Shown: one piece after another, positions 6,363 through 63,773 of the stretch
How the letters are laid out: each line of letters begins with the position of its first letter
Numbering within the stretch: position 1 is the first letter of the stretch
Origin: Candidatus Saccharimonadales bacterium
GTDB taxonomy: Bacteria; Patescibacteriota; Saccharimonadia; Saccharimonadales; UBA10212
Assembly (NCBI GenBank): GCA_035758565.1
Contig: DASTXL010000001.1
Location: 11,242-75,241 of the forward strand
DNA: 64,000 bases
Direction of reading: 5' to 3'
Translations under genes and position numbers: made by a program
Notes under the pieces: model-generated
Database searches by the model: none
What the model saw: the letters and a program-made list of their open reading frames with translations, nothing else
Told to the model about the DNA's origin: nothing

Positions 6363-7667
6363 ATGCTTGATAAAGCCAAAGGGCTCACCGACCTAAAAAA
6401 CAAACTACCTAAGCCAGCCAAAAATACAAAAAGTGGGCAGGTGGGACAGTATTTGGTGGGGTTAGATATTGGCACCGAGTACGTCAAGGCGCTGGTTGGC
6501 CGGGTAGTTGGAAATGAAGTGCAAATTATTGGGGTAGGCCGCGCCCACCAAGAACTGGCCGACATGCAGGCTGGCGCCATTGCCGACATCGCCGCGGTGA
6601 CTGCTAACTGCGACAAAGCTCTAGCAATTGCCGAGCAGCAGGCGGGGGTTAGCGCCCGCACGGCTGTGATAGGAATTGCCGGCGAACTCGTCAAGGGCAC
6701 CACGAGCACGGTTCGCTTCAGCCGTAAGAACTCTACAAAGGAAATCGACGTCGACGAGATGAGCCGTATTATTGAGCTTGTCCAAGAGCGCGCCGAAGCT
6801 AAGGCTCGGCGCGATCTAGCCTGGGAATTGGGCGGCAAAAACGTAGAAGTTCGCTTAGTAAACAGCGCGCTTGTGCGCATAGATATCGATGGCTACAAAG
6901 TGACTAACCCAGTGGGCTTTCAGGGTAAAGATGTGCTGGTAGAAATGTATACCGCCTTTGCGCCAATGATTCATATTGGAGCCTTAGAGCGTACGGCTGC
7001 TGAGTTAGACCTGGATCTTCTGGCTGTGGCCGCCGAGCCATTTGCTGTAGCTCGTAGTGTGGTGGGTGACGATCCCAACGGATCGGTCAGCGCTGTTTTG
7101 ATGGATGTGGGCGGCGGTACTACCGATATTGCCGTAGTTAACGAGGGCGGCGTGGAGGGAACTAAAATGTTTGGGATTGGCGGCCGGGCTTTTACCCATG
7201 CTATCGAACGAGAATTGGATGTTGATTTTGTAAAGGCCGAAAGCCTGAAGCTTGGCCTCGATACTGGCAAGGTTAGCACGGCCCATCGGGCACCAATCGA
7301 AAAAGCTTTGAATAAAACCCTGAATGTCTGGACCAGCGGTGTAGAGTTAGCTCTAGCCGAGTTTAATAAATTAGACCATCTGCCGCACAGAGTTCTGCTT
7401 TGTGGCGGCGGTTCTAGTTTGGAAGCTTTGATGCAGCGTTTAGAAGAAAGCGATTGGTACAAAAGCCTGCCGTTTACTAAAAGGCCGGCTGTTCAGCATA
7501 TCCAACCCGATGAAGTTGTTGGCATAACAGATACTACTGGCGATATAACAGATCACACATTTATAACGGCGATGGGTTTGCTCAGAGTTGGGCTAGATAC
7601 TCTTAGTTCAGACGACAGCGATGGCGGTGGTATCCGCGGTAAACTTAACAAGGTCTTAAAAGTATGA
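6363..7667 (+). CDS. ftsA: Cell division protein FtsA (actin-like ATPase)
   Basis: Phosphate-1 motif LVGLDIGTEYVKALVG, VLMDVGGGTTDIAV, and LLCGGGSSLEAL. Length and order of motifs fit FtsA; PilM is not excluded. Confidence 0.65.
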   Translation: MLDKAKGLTDLKNKLPKPAKNTKSGQVGQYLVGLDIGTEYVKALVGRVVGNEVQIIGVGRAHQELADMQAGAIADIAAVTANCDKALAIAEQQAGVSARTAVIGIAGELVKGTTSTVRFSRKNSTKEIDVDEMSRIIELVQERAEAKARRDLAWELGGKNVEVRLVNSALVRIDIDGYKVTNPVGFQGKDVLVEMYTAFAPMIHIGALERTAAELDLDLLAVAAEPFAVARSVVGDDPNGSVSAVLMDVGGGTTDIAVVNEGGVEGTKMFGIGGRAFTHAIERELDVDFVKAESLKLGLDTGKVSTAHRAPIEKALNKTLNVWTSGVELALAEFNKLDHLPHRVLLCGGGSSLEALMQRLEESDWYKSLPFTKRPAVQHIQPDEVVGITDTTGDITDHTFITAMGLLRVGLDTLSSDDSDGGGIRGKLNKVLKV

Positions 7668-39605: not shown

Positions 39606-39715
39606 AACTAATTACGACCCCGCTCTTTTTGGCTACTTGATTGCCAAAAAGAGCGGGGTCTTGCATTGTCCTTGCTTTTCCGTTTGCTTTATCCTAAAAG
39701 CTCGCGGGTTATAAT
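39606..39715 (+). repeat. tRNA-downstream module D, copy C (perfect 18-bp hairpin and shared promoter block)
   Basis: CTAATTACGACC, then GACCCCGCTCTTTTTGGC tacttgatt GCCAAAAAGAGCGGGGTC, then CTTGCTTTTCC..., then AAGCTCGCGGGTTATAAT. That last block is identical to copy B. Confidence 0.7.
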
Positions 39716-49024: not shown

Positions 49025-49157
49025 AATTCGCTTCGACCAAACGACAAAAAAGCGCAAACAAGTGGCGCTTTTTTCATTTGGTCTTCGCAGCTCTTCCTTT
49101 TCCCCACAAATTCAAAATTTGCGGGGACCCCATAAGCTCGCGGGTTATAATATTTCT
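49025..49157 (+). repeat. tRNA-downstream module D, copy B (two hairpins and a promoter block)
   Basis: GACCAAACGACAAAAAAGCGC aaacaagtg GCGCTTTTTTCATTTGGTC, then TTTTCCCCACAAAT..ATTTGCGGGGACCCC, then AAGCTCGCGGGTTATAAT (-10 at 49146-51). Confidence 0.75.
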
Positions 49158-59164: not shown

Positions 59165-62100
59165 ATGAAGCGATACAATCCCAAAGAGATTGAGCCAAAA
59201 TGGCAGAGTGTTTGGCGCGAATCCGGCATTTATAAAACGGACATGAGTCGTACCAACGATAAGTTTTATGTAATTCCGATGTTGCCGTACCCGTCCGGCG
59301 ATTTGCACATTGGCCATTGGTATAACTTTGCTCCAACAGATACAGTCGCGCGCTTTCGCCGCATGCTGGGGCAGAACGTTTTCACGACCGTTGGCTTTGA
59401 TGCGTTTGGTTTGCCAGCCGAAAACGCGGCGATTAAACGCGGCATTCAACCGGCAGTCTGGACTTACGGCAATATCGCCACTATGACCAAGCAGCTGGAG
59501 CAAATTGGGGCCAGCTACGATTGGGGCCACAGCTTAGCCACTTGCAAGCCGGATTATTATCACTGGAATCAGTGGCTGTTTTTGCAACTTTATGAAAGGG
59601 GCTTAGCTTACCGCGCCAAAAGGGTAGTTAACTGGTGCCCCAAAGATCAGACGGTGTTAGCCAACGAGCAAGTTGTTGGCGAAGAGAACGTTTGCGAGCG
59701 CTGCGGCACGCCGGTTGTTCAAAAAGAACTAGAACAATGGTTCTTTAAGATCACCAACTATGCCGACCGCCTGCTGGACGATTTGGAAACTGTTGATTGG
59801 CCGGCCAAGGTCAAAACCATGCAGGAAAACTGGATTGGCAAAAGCAAAGGCGCCCTGATCGATTTTGAAGTGGCTAAATCTGATGCTCATAGCTCAGAAA
59901 AGCACAAGGAAGAGCCGAAGTGCGGACAAAGCGGTACAAAAGCGTACCGCGGAGAGAGCACTGGAGGATCTGACGCGGTGATTGCTGAGAGTGCCGGCAG
60001 TGTTTCCGGCTCTGCCGGAAAGCAGGACGGCACGGCTATGAGCGTCAGGGTTTTCACTACCAGGCCGGATACGATTTACGGTGCGACTTATATGGTCCTG
60101 GCGCCCGAACATCCGCTGGTGCTAAAAATCACCAGTGACGAATGCCGCGAGCGGGTTGAAAATTATATCGAAGAAACTAAGCGTAAAACCGAGCTGGAAA
60201 GAAAGGAAGGCGAAAAGCATAAAACAGGAAGCTTTACTGGTGCTTATGCCATCAACCCGGCAACCAAGAAAAAGATTCCGATCTGGATTGCTGATTATGT
60301 ACTGGCGAGCTACGGTACCGGTGCAATTATGGCGGTACCGGCGCACGACGAACGCGACTGGGAATTTGCTAAAAAGTTCGACCTGGACATCCAGCCGGTT
60401 GTGGCGCCAATTGTGACCGACAAAGATCATCCGCCCAGGAGCGACAAAGAAAACACTCAGCGCAACGTGGCTATGTGTTTGGTTAAGCATCCTAAAAACG
60501 ATGAGATCATTACTTTAAAATGGCCTAAGTTTGGCTGGCGCGGCTTGGTAACCGGCGGCGTAGAAAAAGGCGAAGATTTAATCGAAGCCGCCGAGCGCGA
60601 AATCACAGAAGAAACCGGCTATAAAAACATGAAGCTGGTCGGCCGCGTACCTTATCCGATTAATTCGCTGTTTTACGCCGAGCACAAAGACGTTAACCGT
60701 GATGTGTTTATGAACATCATGATGTTTGAACTGACCGACTTAGAACAAGTGGCTACCAAAAAAGAAGCTCACGAAGATTTTGAAGCTGAGTGGTGGCCAT
60801 TAAATAAAATTAGCGAGCTATGGCCAGTGTCTGAGCTAGAGTATATTATCGCCTGGCTAAAAAACGGCGACCAAGCTTATGCTGGCGAAGGTACCATGAT
60901 AAATTCCGGTAAATACGACCGCATGAGCTCGGCCGAAGCTCGGGAAAAAATCGTTGCCGATCTAGAAAAAGAAGGCATTGCCAAAGAGCAAACTAACTAC
61001 AAGTTGCGCGATTGGCTGATTAGCCGCCAGCGCTACTGGGGCACGCCGATTCCAATAATTTACTGTAACGACTGCGGCATGCAGACAGTGCCGGAAAAAG
61101 ACTTGCCGGTTATTTTGCCAGAAGATGTTGAATTCACGCCGACTGGACGCAATCCTTTGCTGGATAGACCAGACTTTGTTGGTACAACTTGTCCGAATTG
61201 CGGCAAACCAGCCAAGCGCGAGACCGACACCATGGATACTTTTGTCGATTCCAGCTGGTACTTCCTGCGCTATCTGGATAACAAAAATGATAAAGCGGCT
61301 TTTGATACAGAGCTAATTAACAAATGGATGCCGATGGACCACTACATTGGCGGTATCGAACACGCTATCTTGCACTTGCTATATGCCCGATTTGTCACTA
61401 AATTCTTGCACGATGAACATGGCCTAAATTTTGAAGAACCGTTCCGAAAATTAACCAATCAAGGTTTAATTTTGGGCCCTGACGGTCAAAAAATGAGCAA
61501 AAGCAAGGGTAACGTGATTAATCCGGACGAGCAGGTGACAGGTTACGGCGCCGACAGCCTACGGCTTTATTTAATGTTCATGGGTCCTTACGATCAAGGC
61601 GGGCCGTACTCTTTGGGTGGTATCGCCGGTACGCGCCGGTTCCTGGACCGCATTTGGACTTTGGTTGGCGAGTTTTTGGAAGCCCCAGCCGAAGCCAAAT
61701 CTAATATTAGCGAGACGGCTTTAATGGCTGCTACCCACCGTACTATTAAAAAAGTTACCCAAGACTTAGAAAAGCTGGGCTTTAACACCGCGATTGCTGC
61801 CATGATGAGCCTGGTTAACGAGCTATATAAACAAAAAGCGGCTAATGGTATCAGCCAAACTCCTGCCTGGCGCCAAAGCTTAGAAAGTTTAATTCAGTTG
61901 CTGGCGCCATTCGCGCCGCATATCACCGAAGAAATGTGGCTCGACATGGGCCATGAAGAATCGATCCATGTATCTAATTGGCCACTGTGGGACGAGAAGC
62001 TAGCCAAAGAAGAAATGATAACCCTGGCTGTTCAAATCAACGGCAAAGTCCGGGCTCAAATTACAGTTTCGGCCGACGCTAGCGAACAAGAAATCGTATC

Positions 62101-62194
62101 CGAAGCCAGGGAAGAAGCCGAGGAATATCTTGTCGGAAAAGAAGTCAAAAAAATAATCTACGTCCCTGGCCGCCTAGTTAGCTTAGTAGTCTAG
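59165..62194 (+). CDS. leuS: Leucyl-tRNA synthetase carrying two large in-frame insertions (low-complexity insert and NUDIX domain)
   Basis: HIGH (PYPSGDLHIGHWYNF), editing domain (VFTTRPDTIYGATY; AVPAHDERDWEFAKKF), LRDWLISRQRYWGTPIP, KMSKS (QKMSKSKGN). 1009 aa. Confidence 0.93.
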   Translation: MKRYNPKEIEPKWQSVWRESGIYKTDMSRTNDKFYVIPMLPYPSGDLHIGHWYNFAPTDTVARFRRMLGQNVFTTVGFDAFGLPAENAAIKRGIQPAVWTYGNIATMTKQLEQIGASYDWGHSLATCKPDYYHWNQWLFLQLYERGLAYRAKRVVNWCPKDQTVLANEQVVGEENVCERCGTPVVQKELEQWFFKITNYADRLLDDLETVDWPAKVKTMQENWIGKSKGALIDFEVAKSDAHSSEKHKEEPKCGQSGTKAYRGESTGGSDAVIAESAGSVSGSAGKQDGTAMSVRVFTTRPDTIYGATYMVLAPEHPLVLKITSDECRERVENYIEETKRKTELERKEGEKHKTGSFTGAYAINPATKKKIPIWIADYVLASYGTGAIMAVPAHDERDWEFAKKFDLDIQPVVAPIVTDKDHPPRSDKENTQRNVAMCLVKHPKNDEIITLKWPKFGWRGLVTGGVEKGEDLIEAAEREITEETGYKNMKLVGRVPYPINSLFYAEHKDVNRDVFMNIMMFELTDLEQVATKKEAHEDFEAEWWPLNKISELWPVSELEYIIAWLKNGDQAYAGEGTMINSGKYDRMSSAEAREKIVADLEKEGIAKEQTNYKLRDWLISRQRYWGTPIPIIYCNDCGMQTVPEKDLPVILPEDVEFTPTGRNPLLDRPDFVGTTCPNCGKPAKRETDTMDTFVDSSWYFLRYLDNKNDKAAFDTELINKWMPMDHYIGGIEHAILHLLYARFVTKFLHDEHGLNFEEPFRKLTNQGLILGPDGQKMSKSKGNVINPDEQVTGYGADSLRLYLMFMGPYDQGGPYSLGGIAGTRRFLDRIWTLVGEFLEAPAEAKSNISETALMAATHRTIKKVTQDLEKLGFNTAIAAMMSLVNELYKQKAANGISQTPAWRQSLESLIQLLAPFAPHITEEMWLDMGHEESIHVSNWPLWDEKLAKEEMITLAVQINGKVRAQITVSADASEQEIVSEAREEAEEYLVGKEVKKIIYVPGRLVSLVV
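59885..60043. repeat. Inverted-repeat-bounded, hairpin-rich 159-bp in-frame insertion in leuS
   Basis: GCTCATAGC (59885-93) and GCTATGAGC (60035-43) flank it. Internal hairpins are GCGGTAC/GTACCGC (59931-50) and TTTCCGGC tct GCCGGAAA (60003-21). It encodes about 50 low-complexity residues between FEVAKSD and MSVRVFTTRPDT. Confidence 0.8.
60404..60874 (+). other. NUDIX hydrolase domain embedded in LeuRS (residues ~414-570)
   Basis: Perfect Nudix box GGVEKGEDLIEAAEREITEETGY at nt 60554-60622. It is flanked by beta-strand-like segments (RNVAMCLVKHP..IITLKW; VFMNIMMFELT). Confidence 0.75.
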
Positions 62195-62314
62195 GGGAAG
62201 AGCAGCCCGACAAAATGTATTCCATTTTGCCGGCGCGATGAGAAACCCGCTTGCGGGTGTCTCATAAGGCGAAGCCGCATCTACGTCCCTGGCCGCCTAG
62301 TTAGCTTAGTTGTC
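62156..62314 (+). repeat. Direct duplication of the leuS 3' end (32 nt identical, 36 nt with one mismatch) flanking a two-hairpin insert
   Basis: ATCTACGTCCCTGGCCGCCTAGTTAGCTTAGT occurs at 62156-62187 and 62279-62310. Hairpins between are CGACAAAATG/CATTTTGCCG (62208-32) and ATGAGAAACCCGC/GCGGGTGTCTCAT (62238-65). The copy offset is 123 nt, or 41 codons. Confidence 0.85.
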
Positions 62315-62348
62315 GTTGGCTAAAGTTGTTTTTAAGAGGTAGATAAGC

Positions 62349-62354
62349 TATAAT
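62349..62354 (+). promoter_or_regulatory. -10 box TATAAT upstream of rpmF (SD-led)
   Basis: GCTATAAT ends at 62354. AAGGAG lies 10 nt upstream of ATG 62406. Confidence 0.45.
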
Positions 62355-62405
62355 CTAGCCAAGCTACAAAGGCAAAATAATCCCGAAATAAGGAGTAAAT
62401 ATTTC

Positions 62406-62555
62406 ATGGGTAAACCCAAAAAACGAACTAGTTCCCGCCGCAGCGGCAGCCGCCGCAGCCACTTGGTATTAAAGCTGGCCCGCCGCGTTAACGGCCTCAG
62501 CCCGGTAAAAGCTACTGTTGGCACCAAAAAGATTGGTAAAACCGCCTCAAAATAA
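62406..62555 (+). CDS. rpmF: 50S ribosomal protein L32 (Cys-less form)
   Basis: 49-aa ORF not in the supplied track: MGKPKKRTSSRRSGSRRSHLVLKLARRVN... It matches the L32 N-terminal K-R-R-T-S-x-x-R-x-x-x-R-R-x-H pattern and has a good SD. Confidence 0.6.
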   Translation: MGKPKKRTSSRRSGSRRSHLVLKLARRVNGLSPVKATVGTKKIGKTASK

Positions 62556-62796
62556 AGCTAGACCTTAGGTAGCCCAAAGTAAAACATAAGTTATACTGGA
62601 TAGAGGCCCAGTAAAAGGAAGATTAACAACATGGCAACAGGAATCCATTCCGCCGCTCACTTTCGGGCTGCAACCCCAACCTTTGGGCTGCAGAATCCAT
62701 TTTGCGCGTCGATGTACCTACGGGTACACCTTCTTGCAAAAATGGCTTCTTCGCTTCCAAACATTGGGTCTTCACCTTGCGAAAGGAGCAGACGAA

Positions 62797-63258
62797 ATGG
62801 CTTCTAATCGTCACTTAGGTCGGATAGTCGCCCTGCAAACTCTGTACGAGCAGGATTTTCGGCGCGAGTGTCAAGACGAGACCTTTGATCTTACCGAAGT
62901 AATGGCTCGCAACATAAGTCGTTACGATGAGATGATTGACGATAAGGACTTCATCGAACAATTGGTTCATGGTGTCGATAAGAAAGAGAAAGAGTTGGAT
63001 GATACTATCCGGCCCTTGGCGCCAGAATGGCCCATTGAGCAAATAGCCCGCATGGACCGTGTTATCTTGCGTATCGGCGCTTATGAACTGTTGTTTGAAA
63101 AAGACGTTCCGCCTAAGGTTGTAATCAATGAAGCTGTCGAACTAGCCAAAGCATTCGGCGGCGACAATTCCTCGAAATTCATCAACGGCGTTTTAGGTAG
63201 TGTTTTGCGTCAAAAAGAAGGCGAGCCTGCCGAAGCGCCACAACCCCAAAAGGACTAA
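62797..63258 (+). CDS. nusB: Transcription antitermination factor NusB
   Basis: GAAAGGAG SD upstream of ATG 62797. [13 protein letters not shown]..., [12 protein letters not shown] and [17 protein letters not shown]. Confidence 0.85.
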
Positions 63259-63269
63259 GAAGAATTAAG

Positions 63270-63773
63270 ATGAAAAGACCAAAGCCAATCGCCGGCTTTA
63301 AAAAACTTGTGCATCGGCCTGGTATTCAGGAAGTTGTCCGCGAGCCAACCGCCGGCGGTATTGTTTACCGGCCAAGCAAAAAAAATCCTCAAACTGTCGA
63401 AATCCTACTAATCCAAGACAGCAAGGGTCGCTGGACCATTCCAAAAGGCCATATCGAAGAGGGTGAAACTGCCCGCCAGACCGCCCAGCGCGAAATTACC
63501 GAGGAAACCGGTCTAAAAGAGATGCAAGTGCTTGATTGGCTTGGCAAAATTAATTTTCGGTATCGCCGGGGCAACAGTCTGGTGCTGATGACTACCGAAA
63601 TCTTTTTAGTCAAAGCCCAGGGCAACACCGACGAAGTTAAGCCCGAAAAATGGATGACCAGTTTGGGTTGGCTGCCGGCTACCGATGCGCTTGAAAAAAT
63701 CGAATACGAAGACATCGGTAAGCTGATTTTGATAGCATTAAAGAAAATTAGAACGAATAATCAGGAGAAATAA
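63270..63773 (+). CDS. NUDIX hydrolase
   Basis: Nudix box PKGHIEEGETARQTAQREITEETGL. 167 aa. Confidence 0.85.
   Translation: MKRPKPIAGFKKLVHRPGIQEVVREPTAGGIVYRPSKKNPQTVEILLIQDSKGRWTIPKGHIEEGETARQTAQREITEETGLKEMQVLDWLGKINFRYRRGNSLVLMTTEIFLVKAQGNTDEVKPEKWMTSLGWLPATDALEKIEYEDIGKLILIALKKIRTNNQEK

Follow-up and report, generated by a model that had tools for sequence, protein, structure and literature searches.

Why should leuS, a gene for an essential enzyme, end twice within little more than a hundred nucleotides? The question is raised by a stretch of 64,000 nucleotides from a Candidatus Saccharimonadales bacterium (GenBank assembly GCA_035758565.1, contig DASTXL010000001.1, positions 11,242 to 75,241 of the forward strand), the whole of which we refer to as the window. 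In it, the 3' end of the leucyl-tRNA synthetase gene is followed by a structured insert and then by a second, nearly identical copy of itself. A preliminary description of the window, made from its letters, noticed this arrangement and proposed that it reflects either a small element inserted with a long target duplication, or the scar of an integrative element that brought a replacement gene end, or a conditional read-through extension. We find that the insert is a complete member of a family of short structured elements, which we call E, and we consider it probable that the locus records a real insertion of such an element together with a duplicated gene end, and that no read-through is involved.

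The duplicated leuS end and its counterparts in relatives

The leuS gene (59165..62194; like all features of the locus, on the forward strand) appears in the list of open reading frames (ORFs) as a protein of 1009 aa with the end ...IYVPGRLVSLVV-TAG. It carries tRNA-synthetase Pfam domains, as recorded for a database protein 100% identical to it, while its nearest other relatives are ~67-71% identical. The last 12 codons of the working gene constitute the first repeat copy (T1, 62156..62191), which is continuous with the leuS frame; the displaced last 12 codons form the second copy (T2, 62279..62314), and are followed by GTT GGC TAA (62315..62323), the probable last two codons and stop of the ancestral gene (...VVVG*). 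All 32 nt agree between 62156-62187 and 62279-62310, and the match extends to 36 nt with a single mismatch (A62188/T62311), the starts of the two copies lying 123 nt apart, so that the coordinates bear out the lengths and the spacing given in the preliminary description. No comparable pair of repeats arises in 100 dinucleotide-preserving shuffles of the window, and within the 64 kb this pair is the sole non-tRNA direct repeat of at least 20 nt with close copies. The one difference between T1 and T2 is silent (GTA/GTT), and it would therefore fit a recent event, a donor that was a very close relative, or copies kept alike by conversion.

The unduplicated DNA between the copies (62192..62278, 87 nt) corresponds to the element as defined by its family, from the AGGG start through the third hairpin, and nothing besides E lies between the two repeats. 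A covariance model identifies it as a complete copy, consisting of a 5' purine tail, a hairpin P1, the linker GCGCG, a hairpin P2 and a small hairpin P3. The TAG that closes leuS stands precisely at the junction of repeat and element (62192..62194), and its AG belongs to the conserved 5' AGGG of E. P1 (GCCCGACAAAATG / TATTC / CATTTTGCCGGCGC, 62205..62236), delimited by an RNAalifold consensus and pair counts, contains a conserved A-C mismatch and a bulged C; P2 (ATGAGAAACCCGC / TTGC / GGGTGTCTCAT, 62238..62265) has a conserved base and a variable top; P3 (GGC GAA GCC, 62268..62276) is found in one subfamily only. Both strong hairpins noticed earlier are thus present, with P3 as a small addition. 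The frame of leuS stays open from the TAG at 62192-62194 to the TAA at 62321-62323, and its conceptual read-through translation is exactly the one first reported. We find no second copy of E, even a partial one, elsewhere in the 64-kb window.

Which of the two ends is the ancestral one? The order leuS-rpmF-nusB-nudix-rnc is conserved at the relatives' loci, with rpmF (ribosomal protein L32) following at 62406..62555 in the window. The preliminary description suggested a comparison of leuS 3' ends with those of related genomes, and in this comparison E is absent from the leuS end in eight of the nine other sampled leuS loci, while one locus, L251, displays the same layout as the window (L with a number labels a locus sampled from other genomes or metagenomes). 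Where the leuS-rpmF distance was measured in loci devoid of E, it amounts to 63-68 nt. A promoter block, GCTATAAT...AAGCTAC, is kept in relatives (alignment with L004; sequences of L001, L251 and L254) and lies ~12 nt past the leuS stop in L004; in the window, T2 with the appended GTT GGC TAA ends 25 nt ahead of the TATAAT of this rpmF promoter (62349..62354). Leaving out the 123 nt shortens the alignment between the window and L004 from 326 to 203 columns, with 122 and 121 matches, respectively. Because its position relative to the rpmF promoter matches that of the relatives, the downstream copy (...VVVG-TAA) probably represents the ancestral end position and the 123 nt are probably extra, as had been supposed from the outset. 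LeuS homologues finish at ...LVV/LVI or one to two residues later, and by this comparison both LeuS ends are natural.

L251 comes from an independent MEGAHIT assembly retrieved from ENA and again has the succession of a leuS end, E and a leuS end. Its LeuS protein is 71% identical to that of the window, and the two proteins do not belong to sister lineages. The T1 side of L251 reads ATC TAC GTC CCC GGC CGC CTG GTT AGC TTA GTG GTT GAA TAA, followed by TTTTTC and E; the T2 side reads ATC TAC GTT CCT GGT CGT TTA ATC AGT TTA GTG GTT GCT TAA, followed by the rpmF promoter. The E copy scores 49.5 bits, has the second type of P1 (described below), belongs to the same P2 and third-hairpin subfamily as the window copy and ends in ...AAGGCGTAAGCCGC. 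The repeat begins at the same codon, and the junction (...GCCGC followed by ATCTACG) is identical to that of the window. T1 and T2 of L251 agree at 27/36 nt, their spacing of 133 nt is out of frame, and the frame past the stop runs into a TGA.

The spacer between leuS and rpmF is a variable spot. In two of the relatives it accommodates an ORF on the opposite strand which overlaps the leuS stop, encoding 58 aa in L001 (5873-6049) and 178 aa in L253 (3558-4094).

Element E: census, fold and genomic sites

At least ~170 copies of E are found across metagenome-assembled genomes (MAGs) of Saccharibacteria and metagenomes. The element is about 77-90 nt long and consists of a purine-rich 5' tail (AGGGAAAAGAGCA), two hairpins and sometimes a third, with the consensus AGGGAAAAGAGCAGCCCGACAAAATGTATTCCATTTTGCCGGCGCGATGAGAAAAACCGTAGGTTTGTCTCAT. 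A degenerate motif taken from the centre of the insert (TCCATTTTGC..GCG.CGATGW) matches at least 120 stretches in a collection with one genome per bacterial or archaeal species; about half of the listed matches are in MAGs of Saccharibacteria, Saccharimonadales or Patescibacteria, where every listed match is the same ~75-nt element in unrelated flanks, and among the matches listed those in other phyla are bare chance matches. A 20-mer of the E core likewise occurs in at least 120 JGI metagenome stretches. The covariance model R1, with 77 positions and 41 training sequences including the window copy, detects a single copy in the window (62191-62268; 93.2 bits, E-value 9e-25, model positions 1-77 of 77), which displays the 5' tail AGGGAAAAGAGCAGCC, P1, the GCGCG linker and the P2 base ATGAGA/TCTCAT expected of a family member. 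Copies outside the training set score 60-99 bits. R1 finds at least one copy in each Saccharibacteria locus and 115 copies in 100 metagenome loci. Several MAGs hold two to three copies among the few stretches sampled from them, some 8-kb stretches hold two to three by themselves, and E is present across MAGs whose orthologous flanking proteins are only ~50-70% identical.

Rfam 15 gives no match to the insert at E-values up to 10, and none on E in 15 and a further 20 other loci. Full-text literature searching returned no description of the element; a paper on diverged RNase P RNAs in the candidate phyla radiation (PMC8172020) does not describe it. Nor did blastn of positions 62140-62345 yield matches in phage and plasmid collections, and a 24-mer of the repeat has 0 matches in viral and JGI metagenome contigs. 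Looking up the LeuS of the window as an exact protein was likewise without result. E is therefore apparently an element family without earlier annotation or description, found across diverged Saccharibacteria.

The hairpins of E are shown by their compensatory changes to be maintained. In an alignment of 111 distinct sequences, which was fitted to the covariance model and so favours the structure, 93.5% of the cells form pairs, as against 80.4% in shuffles and 40-50% when the pairing partners are slid; changes on both sides of a pair are seen in 21 of the 22 pairs, and the observed values are reached by none of 500 shuffles. All ten pairs of the P2 helix change on both sides somewhere in the family, and one pair of P1 occurs as C-G (73 sequences), as G-C (24) and as A-U (10). 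In the consensus, P1 comprises 12 pairs with the conserved A-C mismatch, the bulged C and the loop UAUUC, and is joined by the GCGCG linker to P2, which has a constant base (AUGAGA/UCUCAU) and a variable top, at times with large insertions. The third hairpin, AAGGCGAAGCCGC, is shared by the window copy with L067, L115, L128, L148 and L251. With 39 G-U cells against 35 A-C cells, neither kind predominates, and the conserved mismatch is itself an A-C one; the pair statistics are therefore silent on which strand folds, and on whether the folded molecule is RNA or single-stranded DNA.

Besides the common P1 there is a second type with a different sequence, often found in tandem with the first. Tandem pairs of E lie a few bases apart in L151 (754-911), L227 (1655-1816), L178 (4168-4300) and L187 (339-577); usually one member has the common P1 and the other the second type, with the loop AUUCAUU.

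Several other candidate properties of the family can be set aside. A stop codon borne by the element is not its hallmark, since TAA or TAG occupies the junction position in only 32 of 170 copies; the TAG of the window is accordingly a local outcome and not a family feature. An eight-codon mini-ORF in P1 (MYSILPAR) is not conserved, as diverged copies have a different P1. E does not qualify as a sigma-70 promoter of tRNA genes, given that TCTCAT would fall at -12..-7 without an A at -11, there is no -35 element and the length of P2 varies. Neither does it qualify as an intrinsic terminator: most copies lack a U-tract, and no terminator-like site is predicted in the interval 62000-62900, which includes the leuS-rpmF spacer.

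The distribution of E along genomes is far from uniform. A total of 48 of the 170 copies (28%) precede a tRNA gene of the same strand by 2-19 nt, with a mode of 6, and three face a tRNA gene on the opposite strand; the tRNAs behind E are of 14 kinds. E also stands directly upstream of 5S rRNA (L089, L115, L145) and 23S rRNA (L063, 4080-4158; L147), and within 23S rRNA (L042, 529-605; L059). Orthologous sites exist before tRNA-Asn and before tRNA-Pro, each in three genomes and each with the same upstream gene. There the E core is 89-96% identical, compared with 51-70% for the upstream ORF DNA and 70-94% for the tRNA, figures that are inflated by the selection of these loci through an exact 19-20-nt core match; four of these six loci have a TATAAT 30-40 nt ahead of E. 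Such comparisons make it clear that E stays where it is for long periods. The strict siting before tRNA, 5S and 23S genes and the conservation at orthologous places suggest a possible function of E in stable-RNA leaders, where it might affect how these RNAs are transcribed, processed or stabilised.

One of the ribosomal copies (L091, 7131-7209) occupies the extreme 3' end of a 23S rRNA group I intron (Intron_gpI, 6812-7112), and the place of the L063 copy is comparable; the 23S insertions of these bacteria are thus made in part of E (L091, L063, L042, L059). With respect to protein genes, neither orientation of E is favoured, and a fixed orientation relative to replication was rejected on the same observation. 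No transposase-, integrase- or reverse transcriptase-like ORF recurs within 2.5 kb of the copies.

Gene-end repeats and the coding imprint of their copies

The layout seen at leuS is not confined to this gene. Direct repeats of at least 15 nt flank 15 of 156 copies of E (~10%) but only 9 of 2615 positions drawn at random from these loci (0.3%), and repeats of at least 30 nt flank 8 of 156 copies and 0 of the 2615 random positions. The repeats are ends of the adjacent gene, 15-65 nt long, with E in either orientation. They consist of the 3' end of leuS in the window (36 nt, 35/36 identical), of rpsF in L096 (51 nt, 51/51) and, in decayed form, in L240, of an msrA-like gene in L094 (33 nt, 33/33) and in L044, of an fmt-like gene in L139 and of another gene in L136, where the repeat is 50-65 nt long and a second unit contains a decayed E. 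The 17-nt repeat of L239 covers the overlap of the rplX stop with the rplE start. Gene starts are involved at lepA (L051, L128) and tpiA (L181, 38/38; L236), with E antisense to the gene, and the remaining cases concern a tRNA 3' end (L187, 20 nt) and the 3' end of a gene on the other strand (L148, 15 nt). The ends of leuS, lepA, tpiA, rpsF and the msrA-like gene recur across species.

In every one of these cases one copy of the repeat keeps the gene whole. The second repeat begins 3-25 nt after P2, and the distance from the first repeat to the 5' end of E varies between 0 and 64 nt. In four of the 15 loci (window, 123; L096, 120; L181, 144; L139, 150) the spacing can be divided by three, which is the proportion expected by chance; the 11 others have spacings of 116, 119, 119, 119, 124, 133, 142, 143, 146, 159 and 175. 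Where E is antisense at a gene start (L181 and L236 at tpiA; L051 and L128 at lepA), the old start codon opens a short ORF through E, which in L181 stops 4 nt before the new start codon with its fresh ribosome-binding site, in a manner resembling translational coupling.

The differences between repeat copies carry a pronounced coding imprint. Over all pairs, the differing codons are synonymous in 32 instances and non-synonymous in seven (82% synonymous); neutral simulations at the same density average 18%, and not one of 20000 attains 82%. With L044 and L139 left out, both of which were found by peptide similarity and are biased in that respect, the counts are 14 and two, still far from the ~40% synonymous that a free pseudo-sequence as one of the copies would give. 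In L251 six of the differing codons are synonymous and one is conservative (V/I). In L044 the GC content at third codon positions is 0.38 in T1, 0.75 in the gene body and 0.85 in T2, so that T2 looks native and T1 looks foreign. T1 of L251 matches the repeat of the window at 32/36 nt, compared with 19-29/36 for other pairs between genomes, and the 360 nt upstream are 64.5% identical.

Read most simply, these patterns imply that the two copies evolved in separate genomes, each serving there as the working end of its gene, and were joined only afterwards. We give roughly even chances to the corollary that the upstream gene-end copy travels with E. Alternatively, cycles of excision by recombination between the repeats and of re-integration could expose both copies to selection, or the displaced copy might still be used in some way.

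Explanations, comparable systems and meaning

What could have produced the leuS locus? According to the explanation that we regard as probable, E would have entered 6 nt before the original leuS stop, either alone or accompanied by a leuS end from outside. The upstream copy would then be the working leuS end, closed by the junction TAG and yielding a protein two residues shorter and otherwise intact, and the old end (62279-62323) would be left untranslated ahead of the rpmF promoter. The first of the earlier readings, a small element with a long duplication whose 5' copy supplies the stop, is essentially vindicated by the 93-bit score of the insert and by the eight of nine leuS loci that lack E. 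The arriving unit may have consisted of E and a gene-end copy and have gone in at the homologous site, where the incoming copy replaced the resident end; the near-identity of the window copies would fit if the donor belonged to the same lineage or one very close to it, or if the locus were the founding duplication. One candidate for integration is an excised circle of one repeat and E re-inserted in Campbell fashion, which would give both the layout and the boundaries of the unit; further candidates are template switching on incoming DNA and a trans-acting enzyme that works on the hairpins. Only tentatively do we extend this to the family as a whole, where E would be a mobile 80-nt module moving between Saccharibacteria with a gene-end copy as its address and new working end, while E in tRNA, 5S and 23S leaders may be a functional RNA.

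Several observations weigh against this account. With one base separating T1 from T2, plain target duplication explains the window locus equally well. The evidence for a foreign T1 comes from few loci, among them L044 and L139, whose discovery by peptide similarity favours conserved peptides. No integration enzyme, circle or donor was seen, and RecA does not recombine within repeats that are 63-75% identical. For about 90% of E copies a flanking repeat cannot be detected. The working copy of L148 and of L187 lies 3' of E, and L136 resembles a tandem duplication of repeat and E in which the second E has decayed. The genome of the window, finally, is on record as one assembly only.

Among the rival explanations, the one that survives best, and which we hold to be a serious contender while stopping short of calling it probable, takes E to be a host RNA module, functional in the 5' leaders of tRNAs and rRNAs, with the copies at gene ends as spill-over, perhaps stabilising mRNA 3' ends. 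It draws on the 48 to three strand asymmetry before tRNA genes, on the copies before 5S and 23S rRNA, inside 23S rRNA and at the 3' end of a group I intron, and on the conservation of the core relative to the flanking ORF DNA at the tRNA-Asn and tRNA-Pro sites, with TATAAT in four of the six. The repeats, however, are not explained by such a role alone. Next to protein genes the orientation of E is random, and at lepA and tpiA it is antisense. Wobble pairs give no folding strand, as G-U and A-C cells are in parity and the mismatch is A-C, and the identity figures owe part of their height to the selection of loci by an exact core.

Plain transposition is possible, if rather doubtful. E would then be a non-autonomous transposable element inserted at staggered cuts 15-65 bp apart, and the repeat would be a decaying target-site duplication. 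The excess of flanking repeats far above that at random positions, the close abutment of the E 3' end on the second repeat (within 3-25 nt in all cases), the perfect or near-perfect repeats of the window, L094, L181 and L096, and the occurrence of both orientations relative to protein genes would all be accommodated. Against it stand the highly variable length of the repeat, the absence from E of terminal inverted repeats and of any transposase recurring nearby, and the targeting of the same gene ends (leuS, lepA, tpiA, rpsF, msrA-like) in different species. Moreover, the displaced copy does not decay neutrally, as indicated by the 32 and seven codons and the 0 of 20000 simulations, and the upstream copy of L044 has foreign codon usage.

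The second of the earlier readings, taken to mean the scar of a large integrative element such as a prophage or island that brought a replacement leuS end and lost its interior, is very unlikely. One part of it stands: integrase att sites typically show up as direct repeats of a gene 3' end, and the synonymous differences and the codon usage of L044 indicate that a replacement gene end is involved and that upstream copies at some loci look imported. The other part does not, because the 87 nt are the full element as defined by the family and leave no remainder of anything larger. The same small unit furthermore appears at many unrelated targets with different repeats, no integrase is nearby, phage and plasmid collections and viral contigs contain no matches, and the downstream genes are housekeeping ones.

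Translation across the TAG, either as conditional read-through or as ribosomal bypass onto the second copy, is highly improbable. The open frame from TAG to TAA, the combination of a stop, a strong hairpin and matching codons, which recalls programmed bypass, and the coding sense kept by displaced copies lend it some appeal. Yet an open frame of 41 codons is not unusual, the spacing is divisible by three in no more than four of 15 loci, and L251, with its 133-nt spacing, meets a TGA. E is mostly non-coding, lying in tRNA and rRNA leaders and antisense at lepA and tpiA, and the cysteine pattern that had attracted attention in the translated insert falls in a variable hairpin. An assembly artefact, a false duplication from a graph loop at a 32-mer (k-1 for k = 33) as the 32-nt exact part and the single assembly of the window genome might suggest, is scarcely credible and is removed as the cause of the architecture, because the repeat goes on past its mismatch and independent assemblies made with different assemblers (L051, L128, L236, L251) show the layout with mismatched or diverged repeats, which cannot come from a graph loop.

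How does E compare with known mobile or structured elements? Integrative elements with a replacement 3' end (tyrosine-integrase islands and prophages at the ends of tRNA or protein genes, and non-autonomous derivatives such as cis-mobilizable elements, CIMEs) resemble it in that a gene-end repeat flanks the insert, the incoming copy keeps the gene intact, and incoming and resident copies differ by silent changes. The E unit, in contrast, is ~120-145 nt long and has no integrase, and it targets many 3' and 5' gene ends, each with its own repeat of 15-65 nt and without a constant core. Of the features of integrase-type att sites, we thus find a gene-end repeat with the gene restored by the incoming copy, and neither an internal integrase nor a constant core. 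REP/BIME (mobilised by RAYT), ERIC, BOX/RUP and Correia/NEMIS sequences are, like E, short, structured, non-coding and multi-copy, and share with it the residence in transcribed intergenic sites and operon junctions, tandem clusters of subtypes and a possible role in mRNA 3'-end stability. Such families are typically specific to a species or genus. E spans diverged MAGs, keeps a strict position and orientation before tRNA genes and has long gene-end repeats, and unlike REP it displays no GTAG-type signature and no identified RAYT.

Miniature inverted-repeat transposable elements (MITEs) and the palindromic elements of Rickettsia are likewise small non-autonomous insertions tolerated at or in genes. 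Unlike MITEs, E lacks terminal inverted repeats, comes with no short target duplication of constant size and has no full-length insertion sequence (IS) related to it: its ends, AGGGAAAAGAG... and ...GTCTCAT(TAC), are not complementary, and its repeats measure 15-65 nt. Retroposition in the manner of short interspersed nuclear elements (SINEs), by target-primed reverse transcription, offers parallels in the variable target duplications, the tight 3' and variable 5' junctions and the tRNA-linked source copies. No reverse transcriptase was identified, however, E has no A-tail, and the 5' spacer in the lepA cases looks like a decayed duplication rather than a transduced flank; we know of no such mechanism in bacteria for elements of this kind. 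Programmed bypass (T4 gene 60; mitochondrial byp) also involves a mobile structured insert in a coding region, a stop after the take-off site and matching codons, but here neither frame nor spacing is conserved (11 of 15 loci are out of frame, and L251 has an early TGA in place of an extension), the upstream copy gives a complete protein, and antisense copies exist.

With IS200/IS605-type elements in view, the hairpins of E carry a conserved bulge and mismatch, no fixed motif is found in the 5' flank, and flanking repeats occur. Integron attC sites would have R''/R' boxes (RYYYAAC...GTTRRRY) in an array context; the consensus of E contains no such boxes, and no array context is seen. A diversity-generating retroelement is contradicted by the solitary A/T mismatch in 36 nt and by the setting, since leuS is a housekeeping gene with the neighbours rpmF, nusB, nudix and rnc. 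A resemblance to CRISPR arrays ends with the repeats being locus-specific gene ends and the 'spacer' being the same conserved 87-nt element.

The window contains further features in and around leuS. The LeuS protein has a low-complexity insertion of 51 residues (aa 237-287; 59873-60048), absent from its five closest homologues and without a relative among the fetched loci; its DNA is bounded by a 14-nt inverted repeat (59880-59893 / 60035-60048) and folds at -87 kcal/mol (z -6.4), so that it looks like an in-frame palindromic insertion within the coding region. A NUDIX domain (PF00293; 60428-60871) is also inserted in LeuS, as in many Saccharibacteria, whose LeuS measures ~957-1009 aa with the domain and ~800-830 aa without it, some homologues having an alpha/beta-hydrolase domain in addition; a separate nudix gene lies downstream (63270-63773). 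The rpmF-nusB spacer is ~165 nt longer than in relatives (62634-62796) and comprises an ancestral-looking ribosome-binding site with ATG (62631), structured sequence and a second ribosome-binding site with ATG (62797), the real nusB start. The extra DNA includes E-like pieces in permuted order (TCCATTTTGCGCGTCGATG and a hairpin, then GAAAGGAGCAGACGAAATG), of weak similarity and not detected by R1, as well as an 11-nt repeat, AAATGGCTTCT (62740/62795). Farther away, a 23-nt promoter-like repeat (CC.A.AAGCTCGCGGGTTATAAT) occurs at 39693-39715 and 49129-49151, each copy ~100 nt downstream of a tRNA gene (tRNA-Cys and tRNA-Ala).

The tiny genomes of Saccharibacteria are thought to carry few repeats, and across their diverged lineages we describe an apparently unannotated, conserved, multi-copy structured element. 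Its position before many tRNA and rRNA genes at a fixed distance, where it is as conserved as the tRNAs themselves, makes it a candidate for some as yet undescribed step in how these bacteria express their stable RNAs. For genome annotation, insertions of E shorten or re-start genes such as leuS, lepA, tpiA and rpsF, and the short pseudo-ends left over can pass for read-through signals or assembly errors. The copies at gene ends exemplify a way in which a small insertion may enter essential genes without damage, and the coding imprint on both repeat copies points to an exchange of short gene-end cassettes between lineages.

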